Made by a program: the position numbers and the translations under genes
Part shown: positions 4,216-37,793 of the stretch, one piece after another
Numbering within the stretch: position 1 is the stretch's first letter
Layout of the letters: the number at the start of each line of letters is the position of its first letter
Notes under the pieces: model-generated
The model's input: the letters and a program-made list of their open reading frames with translations, nothing else
Told to the model about the DNA's origin: nothing
The model's database searches: none
From: Escherichia phage UE-S1
Sequence record: ON568341.1
Strand: one strand, 5' to 3'
DNA length: 64,000 nucleotides

Positions 4216-4827
4216 ATGAACAAATATCATGTTTATTATACAACAAAGTTATCCCTTCTTGATGAATTAAATCACCGAAGTACTAAGATGAAACGTTATA
4301 CTTTAAATGGTATTACTTTTCGATATTTCCCACAAAAAGTCCTTACTTTTGTCAAGAATCCAAAATGCGTGGCATGTGGGATTGAAGCCACTGAAGTACG
4401 CATTGAACGTACATTTAGTTCTGATCCAGTTTATGGTAAACCACATTTAAATGTATATGCGGTATGTGGTCTTTATGAAGTGTTGATGACAGTTGATCAC
4501 AACCATCTGGCATCGAAGGGTGGTTGTGATTTAGAGTCAAACTTTAATACTATGTGCTCCAAATGCAATCAACTACGTTCTAATAAAACCGAAACAGTTG
4601 ATGAGTTTCTTGAGAAAGTTAAAGATCGTAATCTTCTCCAAGAACATATGAATAAATTCTTTAACGTACAAAAAAAGAAAAATAACATTGACAAGTCGAA
4701 ACTACTAGAAGAACGTAGGTTACGTCAAGAATTATGGGAAACAGACCATCTATGGCATGTTCGAGAATTTGGTCGTCATATGAAAGCTTTGAAAAAAGAA
4801 CAGAAGAAATTGAATAAACATGATTGA
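4216..4827 (+). CDS. HNH family homing endonuclease
   Basis: DHNHLASKGGCDLESNFNTMCSKCNQ HNH motif with an upstream C-x-x-C pair. Confidence 0.8.
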   Translation: MNKYHVYYTTKLSLLDELNHRSTKMKRYTLNGITFRYFPQKVLTFVKNPKCVACGIEATEVRIERTFSSDPVYGKPHLNVYAVCGLYEVLMTVDHNHLASKGGCDLESNFNTMCSKCNQLRSNKTETVDEFLEKVKDRNLLQEHMNKFFNVQKKKNNIDKSKLLEERRLRQELWETDHLWHVREFGRHMKALKKEQKKLNKHD

Positions 4828-5237: not shown

Positions 5238-5636
5238 ATGCTTAAAGAATTAGATTTTTCAAACTTAGAAATTATCAGTGCTGTAAAAAACATTTCCGAT
5301 ATGGGTGATGAGAAAGCAGTTCTTGTTACTATTACTTTTGTAAAAGAAAAAGATAGCTATAGCCATTTAACGGGTATTGAAGAACTAATTCATAAAACCA
5401 ATCTTGAGAATGATGGTAAACTCATCAAGCTTCAGGCTTCCTATACGCAAAAAACGTCAAATTTTATAGACCTAAATAATGTAGTCAAGGTGGTATACAA
5501 TCATCCTGAACACACATATAGGAATACGTCAAGAAATGAAAATGTTGCTAACGATTCGAATATTATCGAAGATGTTGAATTCATAAACACAATTTTTGAT
5601 CGTTGTTCTAAGGATTTAAAAAAAGTATACATGTAA
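5238..5636 (+). CDS. hypothetical protein
   Basis: ORF track. Confidence 0.45.
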   Translation: MLKELDFSNLEIISAVKNISDMGDEKAVLVTITFVKEKDSYSHLTGIEELIHKTNLENDGKLIKLQASYTQKTSNFIDLNNVVKVVYNHPEHTYRNTSRNENVANDSNIIEDVEFINTIFDRCSKDLKKVYM

Positions 5637-5941
5637 TGGGACATTATATGTTCCAATGATATAATGTATATAGAAAATGACAACGGACATTGAAAAATGG
5701 ACACTGAGAACCTACTTCTCTTGAAAATGTAAAGGATAGATGAGCTTTACCGTTGTAGCGAACAGCAGAAGAAACCTGTTAGAGTACTGGCATTCAAACA
5801 AACACGATATAAGACCACGAATCACGGCGACACGGCTGTATAAAGAACTCCGATAAGCATACAGAGAGTTCCTAGATAGATGTATAAGGTTCGCACCTTA
5901 CCAGATTTGCTAAGGGAGTTCAAGAATTGCGGACGCATTTT

Positions 5942-5971
5942 TACAAGAAAGTTGCGTCCAAAATTTGAGAA
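5942..5971 (+). repeat. 30-nt direct repeat, copy 1 (tacaagaaagTTGcgtccaaaatttgagaa)
   Basis: 27 of 30 identical to the copy at 6094..6123; overlaps hairpin GGACGCA/TGCGTCC at 5931-5959. Confidence 0.6.
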
Positions 5972-6093
5972 CAAGTACTACTTTGATCGAATAGAGTTAG
6001 TACTGAGTGCTGTTGATGAAAAGACCAGCGACCGTTGCATATGACTGCGATAGAGAGAAACCGAGCAACCCGCTTTCGCTCTCTAATTTTTGG

Positions 6094-6123
6094 TACAAGA
6101 AAGATCCGTCCAAAATTTGAGAA
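6094..6123 (+). repeat. 30-nt direct repeat, copy 2 (tacaagaaagATCcgtccaaaatttgagaa)
   Basis: 27 of 30 identical to the copy at 5942..5971. Confidence 0.6.
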
Positions 6124-6160
6124 ATTCGCAATTCGATAATATCCGATGCCATCATCGTCA

Positions 6161-6188
6161 AGAGAGACTTAATTGTCTCTTTTTTATT
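6161..6188 (+). terminator. intrinsic terminator-like hairpin plus T-run inside the ORF-free region
   Basis: AGAGAGAC ttaatt GTCTCT followed by TTTTT; could mark the 3' end of a small RNA. Confidence 0.45.
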
Positions 6189-6325
6189 ACCTTCATTCCC
6201 CTGCGGGGGGATGTAATAGTCCTCAACAAATCCCGTCAAGTTTTTAAAGTACATTATCATTTTTAGAAGGAACTAGTTTACGAAGTAAACGCAGTGACTT
6301 CTTGAGTTACGAGAGAACGAAGTGA

Positions 6326-6754
6326 ATGAGTAACACAACGAAAATATCCGATAAATCTGAATTAACACAAATGTTATTCAAAGAATATTTTGAGTTTCAG
6401 ATAAAAGACGAACATCAATTACCACAGCAATATTTGAAAAGAATTAAAGATCCGTCAATAATTACTAAAGAAACAAATTTTTATAATAGTATTTTTGATT
6501 TCGTTAAATCAGTTCATACAACAAGACCTATTGTAGTTTTGTTTTTTGATAAATCTATTCCTTTAGTAGTTCCTGAAAATGTATTTTTTATTTCAGAAAC
6601 TGATTTAAATAACCAAAGTACTGTAAGTAGATTAAGAAATTGCTTACTTGTAGTATGTGATTCTTCATTATATAATAACAGAATACTATGGGATAGAAGT
6701 AAACGCAATGCAATTGCAGAAATGAATCCTGAAGTTACATTTATTATTAACTAA
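6326..6754 (+). CDS. hypothetical protein
   Basis: ORF track; RBS-like GAGAGAACGAAG upstream. Confidence 0.5.
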   Translation: MSNTTKISDKSELTQMLFKEYFEFQIKDEHQLPQQYLKRIKDPSIITKETNFYNSIFDFVKSVHTTRPIVVLFFDKSIPLVVPENVFFISETDLNNQSTVSRLRNCLLVVCDSSLYNNRILWDRSKRNAIAEMNPEVTFIIN

Positions 6755-37759: not shown

Positions 37760-37765
37760 ATAAGT

Positions 37766-37793
37766 GAGACAACTCACAAAAATATGATATAAT
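37766..37793 (+). promoter_or_regulatory. possible promoter with extended -10 (TGaTATAAT) and weak -35 (GAGACA)
   Basis: Shares the ATGATATAAT block with P1, P2 and the ClpA-like promoter. Confidence 0.3.

Follow-up and report, generated by a model that had tools for sequence, protein, structure and literature searches.

The DNA analysed here is a stretch of 64,000 nucleotides of Escherichia phage UE-S1 (hereafter the window), which belongs to an Asteriusvirus, a PBECO4/121Q-like jumbo coliphage, and is 99% identical to PBECO4/G17-type phages. Between an ORF at 5238-5636 and an ORF at 6326-6754 lies a gap of 689 bp (5637-6325), which is real and non-coding, as the preliminary description had proposed. 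Its GC content is 0.40-0.42, against 0.25-0.33 in the flanking DNA, and the lower AT-richness described for the gap was thus confirmed. The additional claim that neither strand contains an ORF of 60 aa or more was refuted by two minus-strand ORFs of 87 and 67 aa. The gap is one self-contained cassette, in the order promoter, ~520-nt RNA, intrinsic terminator, UNCG-capped Q hairpin and block CCUCAACAAAUCCCGUCA. It starts with the promoter at 5637, and the conserved unit ends at 6238-6240. A small HNH endonuclease gene (window 4216-4827, 203 aa) precedes the cassette by about 0.8 kb, and does so only in the Asteriusvirus copies. The features of the locus are as follows.

5637-5665, plus strand: promoter P1, TGGGACA-N13-TGATATAAT
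5637-5643, plus strand: -35-like element TGGGACA of promoter P1, followed by a 13-nt spacer
5657-5665, plus strand: extended -10 element TGATATAAT of promoter P1
About 5672-6188, plus strand: body of the large structured RNA, with a length of ~520 nt for an end at the terminator
6163-6168/6175-6180 (stem) and 6180-6185 (U6), plus strand: putative intrinsic terminator, its function judged from its form
6192-6201/6206-6215, plus strand: Q hairpin, UUCAUUCCCC-UGCG-GGGGGAUGUA, a 10-bp stem with a UNCG-type loop
6221-6238, plus strand: near-invariant block CCUCAACAAAUCCCGUCA, the 3' boundary of the conserved unit
6241-6325, plus strand: AT-rich spacer and leader of ORF 6326-6754, paralog-class-specific and outside the shared unit (52-copy downstream alignment)
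6276-6281/6285-6290, plus strand: leader hairpin GTTTAC-gaa-GTAAAC
5997-6260, minus strand: 87-aa ORF inside the gap
5501-5704, minus strand: 67-aa ORF overlapping the left edge of the gap

A consensus scan matched GGGACA-16-TATAAT plus an upstream TG at promoter P1, and the P1 motif is kept ahead of every paralog class of the family described below. Motif, spacing and conservation among homologues mark it as a predicted promoter of the sigma-70 type with an extended -10 element. Promoters of the same type were also found at 16670 and 37765 of the window, and P1 is of the same class as the 'divergent RpoD-like promoter' (-35 TGAAACG) of phages CBB and GAP32 (PMC5259590). Transcription would start near 5671-5673. 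The block together with the TATAAT-like stretch that follows it was considered as a second promoter, which is plausible in the phage copies, but the bacterial copies do not retain the -10-like stretch.

The terminator-like hairpin noted earlier at 6161-6188 is real. Its stem is directly followed by a U run, which is the form of an intrinsic (Rho-independent) terminator and suggests that function, and 4 of its 6 pairs covary. The U run is retained in the classes having the terminator, which is missing in classes 3 and 4 and in 121Q_c and BF_c. Our terminator scan missed 6163-6185, because the stem has fewer G-C pairs than the scan rule requires. The ends of the RNA were deduced from the positions of the promoter and the terminator, and a read-through form would extend to about 6240; the abundance of the RNA and its timing in infection are likewise matters of deduction. 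A transcriptome for any Rak2-like enterobacterial phage was not found in the literature, and the RNA-seq-defined ncRNAs of the related phage PA5oct showed no similarity to the gap RNA by nhmmer.

The CCCC-UGCG-GGGG hairpin of the preliminary description also exists, and it extends to the 10-bp, almost invariant stem of the Q hairpin. This hairpin occurs in every family member; its core CCCC/GGGG is invariant on the 26-member alignment A1, and the loop varies among UGCG, UGUG, UAUG, GAUG and CAGU. The block CCUCAACAAAUCCCGUCA is found in all copies and has a single occurrence in the window. A search inside the RNA for a covarying partner of the CCUCAACAAAUCYCGUCA block gave only lineage-correlated columns and no antiparallel helix. 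In the window copy, the Q hairpin and the block are situated 3' of the terminator, yet they are conserved like the RNA core; a simple model in which the RNA ends at the terminator leaves this conservation unexplained. The leader hairpin further downstream is present as had been described, with a compensated form, GTTATC-gta-GATAAC, in phage A4.

The fold of the RNA was derived from alignment A1 (104 pairs scored), and 21 further paralogs, left out at that step, formed alignment A2 (92 pairs). On A1, 92.2% of the cells were paired, as compared with 38-44% when the partners were slid, and two-sided changes were detected at 58 of the 104 pairs, while the controls gave about 20. The covariation score was 0.39 against 0.04-0.08 in the controls, and none of 500 shuffles reached this value. 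On A2, the paired cells amounted to 88.3% (36-42% in the controls), with two-sided changes at 58 of the 92 pairs. Pairs are thus kept by compensatory change beyond controls on both alignments. The strand of the RNA is fixed by the G-U pairs; the minimum-free-energy z-score was -3.0, and the opposite strand, at -2.2, was only slightly weaker. The conservation, the covariation, the promoter and the terminator together strongly support the proposal that the gap encodes a structured non-coding RNA.

The architecture comprises ~19 helices, two pseudoknots and one three-way junction. One or more RNAs had been suggested for the gap; the long-range helices and pseudoknots indicate one large folding unit, not a cluster of small RNAs. 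The long-range ties are 5680-5686/5750-5756, 5762-5766/5835-5839, 5986-5992/6131-6137 and 6046-6050/6126-6130. The suggestion of a degenerate RNA element does not apply either, as the conservation at the DNA level exceeds that of the neighbouring protein genes. The 5' half of the RNA contains the following elements.

5680-5756, plus strand: pseudoknot PK1, in which ACAACGG (5680-5686) pairs with CCGUUGU (5750-5756) in the P3 loop
5744-5746/5757-5759, plus strand: stem of hairpin P3, 2 of 3 pairs covarying
5688-5691/5696-5699, plus strand: hairpin P1 of the RNA, enclosed by PK1
5712-5739, plus strand: long hairpin P2, enclosed by PK1, with the conserved loop GAAAAUGUA and 7 of 8 pairs covarying
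5762-5766/5835-5839, plus strand: helix P4, closing the domain 5762-5839, 100% paired and covarying
5776-5779/5824-5827 plus 5782-5783/5822-5823, plus strand: helix P5, 100% paired and covarying
5784-5821, plus strand: variable arm inside the P4 domain
5830-5832/5881-5883, plus strand: tertiary helix T1 of 3 bp, ACA/UGU, 100% paired on A1 and A2
5845-5871, plus strand: hairpin P7 (GAACUC/GAGUUC), two-sided changes at 6 of 6 pairs on A1 and A2
5885-5889/5896-5900, plus strand: hairpin P8, within 5885-5918
5909-5918, plus strand: strand 3' of P8, ending in the conserved GCUAAGGGAG

The two strands of PK1 vary in concert among the other paralogs, as CUGAUUGA:UCAAUCAG, GUGUGG:CCACAC and CUGAAUGA:UCAUUCAG, and on A2 it was 92.9% paired with two-sided changes at 6 of its 7 pairs. 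The P4 domain includes the invariant strand AGAAGAAAC, and in the relatives L034 and L023 a UUCG tetraloop capping P5 stands in for the entire variable arm. T1 crosses P4 and is therefore a pseudoknot-type contact; its pair sets differ by paralog class (AUG:CAU, AUA:UAU and ACA:UGU). Hairpin P8 occurs as UAAGG:CCUUA, UGAG:CUCA or UAAG:CUUA, its columns being partly misaligned by MAFFT. Within GCUAAGGGAG, UAAGGGA is invariant in 47 sequences. The elements of the 3' half are listed below.

5918-5972, plus strand: expansion segment 1, an optional peripheral hairpin with stems 5918-5921/5969-5972 and 5924-5928/5962-5966
5931-5937/5953-5959, plus strand: apical hairpin GGACGCA/UGCGUCC of expansion segment 1, read from the sequence
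5975-5985/5992-6003, plus strand: hairpin B, covarying
5986-5992/6131-6137, plus strand: pseudoknot PK2, AUCGAAU in the loop of hairpin B with AUUCGAU
6008-6012/6026-6030, plus strand: hairpin I, spanned by PK2, covarying
6029-6045, plus strand: invariant strand CGACCGUUGCAUAUGAC, spanned by PK2
6046-6130, plus strand: three-way junction of helix G, hairpin M and helix E
6046-6050/6126-6130, plus strand: helix G
6053-6057/6073-6077, plus strand: hairpin M, GAGAG/CUUUC, with a near-invariant 15-nt loop AAACCGAGCAACCCG
6080-6083/6119-6122, plus strand: helix E, UCUC/GAGA, bearing expansion segment 2
6145-6159, plus strand: hairpin N (GAUGC/UCGUC), with CGUCAAG next to it

PK2 was 99.5% paired on A1 with 4 covarying pairs, and 100% paired on A2 with all 7 pairs covarying. 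The helices G, M and E were 99-100% paired on A1; on A2, G and M were 100% and E was 82% paired, and all three showed two-sided changes. The pairing AGAGAG/CTCTCT (6052-6083) assigned previously to this part is replaced, family-wide, by 6053-6057/6073-6077 and 6080-6083/6119-6122. Hairpin N was 87% paired on A1, with U-G/C-G and C-G/A-U alternatives, its columns being misaligned in A2. The previously noted hairpin at 5931-5959 is present in the sequence, as part of an expansion segment that many paralogs lack: segment 1 is present, reduced or absent depending on the paralog. Expansion segment 2 is missing in several classes, where helix E is a short hairpin. The direct repeats were correctly placed at 5942-5971 and 6094-6123, with an identity of 28/30 rather than the 27/30 given before (BLAST E = 5.5e-7 within the 64-kb window). 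The first copy lies in segment 1 and the second in segment 2, each 30-nt repeat representing one copy of a peripheral, optional hairpin module.

Only the non-coding stretch aligns, with 67-71% nucleotide identity, to Mimasvirus, Eneladusvirus and other genera, and the gene contexts of these cross-genus alignments are of at least three kinds. Every Rak2-like jumbo phage examined has 3-4 dispersed, co-oriented paralogs in its genome of ~350 kb. BLAST against Asteriusvirus implies four places per record, and three were located in 121Q, at about 192.7, 247.5 and 326.6 kb. BF and four metagenomic genomes contain four copies each, all co-oriented. No further copies inside the window were detected by BLAST or nhmmer. 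Scans of IMG/VR by exact 16-mers and gapped motifs gave many chance matches, which were removed by nhmmer. The most widely syntenic copy, class 1, is located between endonuclease VII and the baseplate hub, facing a convergent gene, and the class 1 copies have no downstream gene to regulate. Classes 3 and 4, without the terminator, are directly upstream of genes, and therefore the RNA is formally a 5' leader there.

The family is confined to the Rak2-like jumbo phages, except for complete cassettes in an E. coli island and a Citrobacter integrative element. The bacterial carriers are E. coli LR-29-1 and EEC_W5 and Citrobacter amalonaticus P55. The homology between the bacterial and phage copies stops just after CGUCAG, right behind the block CCUCAACAAAUCCCGUCA, and in both bacterial elements the cassette is upstream of co-oriented ORFs. 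The E. coli island has candidate defence genes, with IS3 elsewhere in the island and not adjoining the cassette, and the Citrobacter element bears a CI/Cro-type switch. These alignments show the cassette as a discrete unit that has moved into bacterial integrative elements.

The longest ORFs of the 26 members of A1 revealed no ORF conserved in position, strand or frame, and one family member has no ORF of 35 aa or more. This lack of a conserved reading frame rules out a protein-coding gene or a pseudogene and is the property expected of a structured non-coding RNA. Some annotators called short ORFs in the region. ARAGORN predicted no tRNA or tmRNA gene in the whole window, and Rfam 15, whose families include group I/II introns, RNase P, 6S, SRP, GOLLD, ROOL, OLE, HEARO, raiA, IS605-orfB RNAs, riboswitches and T-box, gave no match in the window at the gathering thresholds. 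When E values up to 10 were allowed for 5500-6450, only chance matches to snoRNA, miRNA and lncRNA families were obtained, far below the threshold, and five diverse relatives gave no recurrent match inside the element. By-eye resemblances to RNase P (AGAGAG-AAACCG, UAAGGG and CCUAGAU) were not collinear and had no covariance-model support, and they were discarded. A group I intron was also rejected: the preceding ORF stops at 5636, the next one starts at 6326, the element has its own promoter and terminator, and its contexts are unrelated. A description of this RNA family was not found in the literature. The RNA thus matches no described family and is a strong candidate for a new class of large functional RNA.

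With a probability of roughly 60%, the gap contains a gene that is transcribed independently and specifies a large, trans-acting non-coding RNA of a new family with a compact fold. In this mechanism, the host RNA polymerase would start at about 5672 from TGGGACA-N13-TGATATAAT; the terminator (about 6185), which is moderately weak, would stop a part of the transcripts, and the others would continue past the Q hairpin as far as CGUCAAG (about 6240). Once folded, the RNA would work in trans and would most likely serve an RNA-protein particle as its RNA subunit or be a ribozyme-like scaffold. Its working surface would consist of the loop of hairpin M and the invariant strands at the junctions, and the variable hairpins, including the two 30-nt repeat modules, would be peripheral decoration. 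The action in trans is suggested by the structural complexity and by the stand-alone copy, and we favour a trans-acting folded RNA or RNA-protein particle. More tentatively, the family may represent a new class of pseudoknotted RNA machine, a ribozyme or particle core, existing as four diverged copies and captured by bacterial elements.

The closest parallels to this proposal are other large RNAs. Like the gap RNA, GOLLD and ROOL are several hundred nt long, multi-domain, pseudoknotted, phage-borne and non-coding, and were discovered by comparative sequence analysis. However, they do not match it in sequence or structure (Rfam), and their hosts are Lactobacillales or rumen and lake taxa, whereas those of the gap RNA are Enterobacteria. 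Unlike them, the present RNA occurs as 3-4 paralogs per genome, has a conserved promoter of its own and is followed, behind the terminator, by a conserved hairpin-plus-block, and it is not associated with a tRNA cluster, as judged from the ARAGORN result for the 64 kb. RNase P RNA and group I introns are similar to the gap RNA in size, in an invariant single-stranded junction core, in long-range pseudoknots and in variable peripheral hairpins replaceable by tetraloops, but there is no covariance-model match; the gap RNA is not an intron, because it has no flanking exons and possesses its own promoter and terminator.

The cassette could instead be a cis-acting module for transcription control, which we regard as a considerably less probable explanation. 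By modifying the transcribing polymerase or sensing a factor, the nascent RNA plus Q hairpin and block, arranged like boxB and boxA in a nut site, would decide between stopping at the terminator and downstream transcription, and in bacterial mobile elements the cassette would serve to sense infection by a jumbo phage. The order of promoter, long structured leader, terminator and same-direction genes (window copy and class 2) agrees with such a module, as does the direct run into ORFs of the classes 3 and 4, and so do the hairpin and invariant single-stranded block immediately 3' of the terminator and the position of the cassette ahead of co-oriented ORFs in both bacterial elements. The lambda nut, HK022 put and rrn boxB-boxA elements are also promoter-proximal RNA elements, with more than one copy per phage genome and a hairpin followed by a conserved linear sequence near a terminator. 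However, class 1, the syntenic copy with the best conservation, is followed by no gene that could be antiterminated and points at a convergent baseplate gene, so that the family is not always upstream of a co-oriented gene, as a riboswitch or T-box leader would be. In addition, those elements have 50-100 nt, and the gap RNA (~500 nt, two pseudoknots) exceeds the size of known antitermination RNAs and riboswitch aptamers several times. The downstream genes share no common theme (Dps-like, ADP-ribosylglycohydrolase, Dam methylase and unknowns), and the block is only weakly similar to boxA, as seen by eye alone.

We consider it unlikely that the copies are replication origins, at which a middle-type promoter would yield a transcript that folds like ColE1 RNA II, stays hybridised near its 3' end and primes the leading strand at the CGUCA|G boundary beside the AT-rich stretch, as in oriF and oriG, the promoter-dependent R-loop origins of T4. 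Middle promoters serve the T4 origins, and plasmids with such an origin replicate upon T4 infection; similarly, an infecting jumbo phage would amplify the bacterial elements that have captured complete cassettes. The gap RNA resembles ColE1 RNA II and the oriF/oriG transcripts as a promoter-driven, structured transcript of ~0.5 kb, near the length of RNA II, whose 3' region could set the priming point, and the family shares with the T4 origins a middle-type promoter and several copies per phage genome, here three to four that are dispersed and co-oriented over ~350 kb. One copy adjoins recombination genes and the baseplate hub, and conservation ends sharply after CGUCAG, with AT-rich sequence next. 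Furthermore, this promoter class is found before DNA-synthesis genes (PMC5259590). On the other hand, the terminator precedes the proposed priming site in three classes, and the pseudoknots and invariant junctions constrain the fold far beyond the needs of a primer and far more than in those transcripts. There is no partner like the antisense RNA I of ColE1, and the unit contains no iterons and no marked unwinding element.

A guide or scaffold RNA of a mobile element is very improbable, either as an orphan omega-RNA-like partner of TnpB/IscB or as an RNA-bearing non-autonomous transposable element with its end at the Q hairpin plus ...TCAA/TCAG. The multiple copies, the portability between phages and bacteria and the sharp 3' boundary would suit such an RNA, and the subterminal hairpin followed by an invariant strand is reminiscent of IS200/IS605 right ends. 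However, the HEARO and IS605-orfB RNA families of Rfam do not match, no nuclease or transposase is consistently adjacent, and tnpB/iscB is not annotated beside any copy examined. The paralog positions are stable across genera, and therefore the copies are ancient and not recently mobile. Behind the boundary, a guide-like DNA of variable sequence and fixed length is not present.

Several small independent RNAs (tRNA-like or sRNA genes), or a decaying pseudogene with chance hairpins and repeats, could be suggested by the local hairpins, the duplicated 30-mer and the annotated short ORFs, but are hardly credible against a single promoter, long-range covarying helices that unite the whole stretch, the lack of tRNAs and of conserved ORFs, and a cross-genus conservation above that of the flanking genes. 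The likeness to the tRNA and small-RNA region of T4-like phages, offered in the preliminary description, is likewise one of unrelated regions. The T4 tRNA/stable-RNA region (species 1 and 2 RNAs) is also non-coding and GC-richer than its surroundings, and the present phage is a distant relative of T4, but the gap is a single large fold without tRNAs or a small-RNA cluster and is absent from Rfam.

To our knowledge, only a few bacterial and phage ncRNAs of more than ~400 nt have a ribozyme-like architecture, namely RNase P, group I/II introns, OLE, GOLLD, ROOL, HEARO and raiA. Each of these large ncRNAs led to new biology. The carriers of the present family include culturable coliphages (PBECO4, 121Q, G17, phAPEC6 and others) that infect laboratory E. 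coli, and therefore the RNA is directly testable as to transcription, structure, partners and phenotype. The family accounts for about 2 kb per genome, which is blank or filled with spurious short ORFs in present annotations. If such an RNA machine is real, it would be important enough to the infection cycle to be captured by integrative elements, and the bacterial elements could use their copies to sense, sabotage or hitch-hike on jumbo-phage infection. That integrative elements of bacteria contain complete copies points to a so far unexplored layer of conflict or parasitism involving bacteria and jumbo phages, in which an RNA cassette may be the mediator.

Positions 5400-6600 were compared with GenBank phages by BLAST, and showed 99% full-length identity to SHEFM2K, G17, BF17, Sharanji and PBECO4, and 95% identity to 121Q. 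From these matches to Escherichia phages, the window belongs to Asteriusvirus, Rak2-like jumbo myoviruses of about 350 kb. The gap extends from the end of the upstream ORF at 5636 to the next plus-strand ORF start at 6326. Its 121Q counterpart is flanked by gene 515 ('structural protein') and gene 517 (hypothetical), and the sole annotation inside it is a 51-aa minus-strand ORF. As the preliminary description stated, the gap is less AT-rich than its flanks (GC 0.40-0.42 inside vs 0.25-0.33 outside), but its claim that no ORF of 60 aa or more is present was wrong: the minus strand carries an 87-aa ORF (5997-6260), and a 67-aa ORF crosses the left edge. No conserved ORF was found among 26 relatives, whose longest ORFs differ in strand, frame and place; one relative has no ORF of at least 35 aa. 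The 87-aa ORF, antisense to the RNA described below, lacks conservation and is probably spurious; short 'hypothetical proteins' are annotated there in some GenBank records. A 203-aa ORF about 0.8 kb upstream of the cassette (4216-4827, +), assigned to HNH endonucleases in the annotation of 121Q (gene 513) and A4, showed no association with other cassette paralogs.

The cassette in this gap is a non-coding, multi-copy and portable RNA unit with its own promoter and a constrained structure. Its parts were read from alignments of family members; the helices were derived from column-pair statistics and mutual information, and then tested by pair counting.

Features of the cassette and its RNA fold (P, T1, B, I, G, M, E, N, helices; PK, pseudoknots)
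5637-5665, +, promoter, TGGGACA-N13-TGATATAAT, extended -10; also recovered by a consensus scan
about 500 nt, +, RNA body, between promoter and terminator
5680-5686/5750-5756, +, PK1, 5' leader with loop of P3
5688-5691/5696-5699, +, P1
5712-5739, +, P2, conserved loop GAAAAUGUA
5744-5746/5757-5759, +, P3
5762-5766/5835-5839, +, P4
5776-5779/5824-5827, +, P5, closing a variable arm
5830-5832/5883-5881, +, T1, 3-bp tertiary helix
5845-5850/5866-5871, +, P7
5885-5889/5896-5900, +, P8
5975-6003, +, hairpin B, loop 5986-5992 entering PK2
5986-5992/6131-6137, +, PK2, hairpin B loop with downstream strand
6008-6012/6026-6030, +, hairpin I
6046-6050/6126-6130, +, helix G of three-way junction
6053-6057/6073-6077, +, hairpin M of the junction, near-invariant 15-nt loop
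6080-6083/6119-6122, +, helix E of the junction
6145-6159, +, hairpin N
6163-6185, +, intrinsic terminator, hairpin then U run
6192-6215, +, Q hairpin, 10-bp stem, UNCG-type loop, nearly invariant
6221-6238, +, block CCUCAACAAAUCYCGUCA, nearly invariant

Every paralog class has this promoter in front, with TGAAACG, TGGAACA or TGGGACA as its first element and TGnTATAAT as its second. A 'divergent RpoD-like promoter' with the -35 element TGAAACG, mostly upstream of DNA-synthesis genes, was reported for CBB and GAP32 (PMC5259590), and judging from its motif the cassette promoter is of this type. Two further perfect copies of TG(G/A)GACA-N13-TGATATAAT, at 16670-16698 (+) and 37765-37793 (+), presumably represent ordinary promoters that share its temporal class. 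The terminator stem occurs in compensatory versions (AGAGAC/GUCUCU, GUACAC/GUGUAC and GAUCC/GGGUC). A search for a pairing partner of the block found none. The sequence 3' of the block is class-specific; in the window, 6241-6325, containing the hairpin 6276-6290, is the leader of ORF 6326-6754. The heptamer CGUCAAG occurs twice, at 6155-6162 (end of hairpin N) and 6233-6240 (end of the block), and the two sites covary between genomes (CAAG/CAAG, CAGA/CAGU, CAAA/CAAU), a pattern that may stem from concerted evolution or from recognition of both sites by one factor.

The preliminary reading of the region as structured non-coding RNA was borne out by a covarying fold together with the lack of a conserved ORF. 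On 26 distinct members, the 104 pairs of the model were 92.2% paired, compared with 38-44% when the partners were slid; two-sided changes were found at 58 pairs vs 16-21 in controls, and the covariation score was 0.391 vs 0.04-0.08, a value reached by none of 500 shuffles. Because the structure was built from these 26 sequences, the pairs were recounted on the window and 21 unused paralogs, mostly of classes 3 and 4, giving 88.3% paired vs 36-42% and two-sided changes at 58 of 92 pairs. In this set PK2 was 100% paired with 7/7 pairs covarying, PK1 was 93% paired with 6/7 covarying, and compensatory changes appeared in hairpin M. Frequent alternation of G-U with G-C or A-U fixed the plus strand as the RNA strand; the minimum-free-energy z-scores (-3.0 plus, -2.2 minus) are weak on their own. 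Invariant single strands lie between the helices (AGAUGAG, GCAGAAGAAAC, AUAAAG, CUAGAUAGA, GCUAAGGGAG, CGACCGUUGCAYAUGAC and AGAAAUUC), and the variable arm on P5 is replaced by a UUCG tetraloop in two relatives.

All five hairpins noticed earlier are present, as are the 30-nt direct repeats at 5942-5971 and 6094-6123 (E = 5.5e-7 within the window), which are identical at 28 of 30 positions rather than 27. Each repeat forms the 3' half of a peripheral, optional hairpin module, the first in an expansion segment (5918-5972) between GCUAAGGGAG and hairpin B, the second at the tip of helix E (6084-6118). Across paralogs the module occupies the first site, the second, both or neither. It follows that the repeat reflects duplication of a decorative module within one RNA and does not indicate tandem genes.

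The non-coding stretch matched 71 phage records with hosts in nine genera (Escherichia, Klebsiella, Salmonella, Erwinia, Yersinia, Cronobacter, Pectobacterium, Xanthomonas and Serratia). Alignment to phages of the distant genera was limited to the non-coding part, at 67-71% identity, and did not extend to the flanking genes. The element is flanked by a structural gene and a Dps-like gene cluster in Asteriusvirus, and is located after a large hypothetical gene in GAP32, CBB, XbC2, Yen9-04 and Kaldavass, and between endonuclease VII and the baseplate hub in BF, 7t3, Kae01, EJP2 and Hallingskeid. Paralogy explains the differing neighbourhoods. The copies in 121Q lie at about 192.7, 247.5 (the orthologue of the window copy) and 326.6 kb; BF and four metagenomic jumbo genomes have four each, and GAP32, CBB and Yen9-04 at least three each. 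All copies within any one genome are co-oriented, and the syntenic copy common to all these lineages is that at endonuclease VII/baseplate hub. A core 27-mer matched 15 metagenomic stretches, mostly on large, jumbo-size contigs, and had no match in 185,579 prokaryotic species (one genome per species); a slightly shorter core pattern matched one prokaryotic genome, Citrobacter amalonaticus P55.

A BLAST search of 5,426 complete E. coli genomes gave two chromosomal copies, in LR-29-1 (NZ_AP027515.1; locus L160, 8857-9507; 464 bits by nhmmer) and in NZ_CM130020.1 (245292-245781). The LR-29-1 copy is complete from promoter through RNA, terminator and Q hairpin to block. It lies in an island of about 10.8 kb (L160 4800-15590) between ffs and ybaA, found in those two genomes. 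Besides hypothetical genes and a resolvase, the island has a tyrosine integrase gene interrupted by IS3 and two candidate defence genes, PDC-M45A and PDC-M45C, which encode a dual-OB protein and a DUF488 protein. Iteron-like repeats of ATCGATCGTT and TTATCGATCG units in an AT-rich stretch, about 400 bp downstream of the cassette (L160 9880-9980), may be the island's own origin. The Citrobacter copy (NZ_JBALIF010000001.1; locus L161, 3497-4126) has two tandem phage-type promoters in front, directly follows the gene for a 520-aa large serine recombinase, and is near a CI-like (S24 peptidase)/Cro-like pair, with type IV pilus genes alongside. Since a 118-aa gene is common to both, the Citrobacter element and the E. 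coli island are probably one family of prophage-like or satellite-like elements. Island and phages (best match BF, 80.6%) are homologous only from the RNA to the end of the block, with similarity ending just after CUCGUCAG; the moving unit therefore runs from promoter to block, which, from these alignments, is presumably also the functional unit.

ARAGORN found no tRNA or tmRNA in the 64-kb window, and Rfam 15 gave no match at gathering thresholds; at E up to 10 there were chance matches alone, none recurrent in five diverse relatives. No similarity was found to the RNA-seq-defined ncRNAs of the related Pseudomonas phage PA5oct, and full-text literature searches found no published description. 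As all membership tests run for named RNA families were negative, and the general properties of a structured RNA gene, an extended -10 promoter and an intrinsic terminator were found, the element is rated as a new RNA class, with novelty judged solely against Rfam 15 and openly searchable literature. Its nearest counterparts in kind are GOLLD and ROOL, both large ornate RNAs, and in complexity RNase P RNA and group I introns.

We favour a folded RNA that would act in trans, as the core of an RNA-protein particle or a ribozyme-like scaffold. Taken jointly with the near-certain part, that this is an RNA gene of an undescribed family, its probability is about 0.6. Invariant junctions, two pseudoknots and dispensable peripheral arms are the architecture of RNAs that work by means of their three-dimensional shape, and the best-conserved paralog lacks a gene to control. 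In the bacterial elements the cassette is complete, which would be expected if the RNA itself had an activity usable for or against the phage.

Several features complicate this picture. With its short stem of 6 bp, including 3 G-C pairs, the terminator of the window copy plausibly allows read-through. In classes 3 and 4 and the copies 121Q_c and BF_c (of 121Q and BF) the terminator is absent and hairpin N directly joins the Q hairpin. Transcription of these copies has to include the Q hairpin and block, and their RNA formally counts as a long leader. ORFs start 110-160 nt past the block of these copies, one of them with a Dam methylase gene behind it. In class 4 (for example loci L075 6725-6760 and L072 597-630) and in 121Q_c (L065 3540-3575), a perfect hairpin and then a run of six or seven U come directly behind the predicted transcription start and look like a terminator at the RNA's 5' end. 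Class 1 and 2 loci (for example L004 1890-2060, L011 1670-1830, L002 2000-2110) have about 130 nt more of conserved sequence past the block, consisting of GAAUUGAG, a covarying hairpin and UUGACA-hairpin-GGCAAAUCA. The class 1 version runs up to a bidirectional terminator, AAAAAAACCAGC...GCUGGUU, which it shares with the convergent baseplate operon. This stretch may represent either a second small RNA or a read-through tail.

Of the other readings, a cis-acting module for read-through or antitermination is less likely; the bacterial elements would then use it to sense infection. A primer RNA for an origin, like ColE1 RNA II or the T4 oriF/oriG transcripts, appears improbable, and a guide or scaffold RNA of a mobile element highly so. 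Several small RNAs, or decay, are contradicted by the data.
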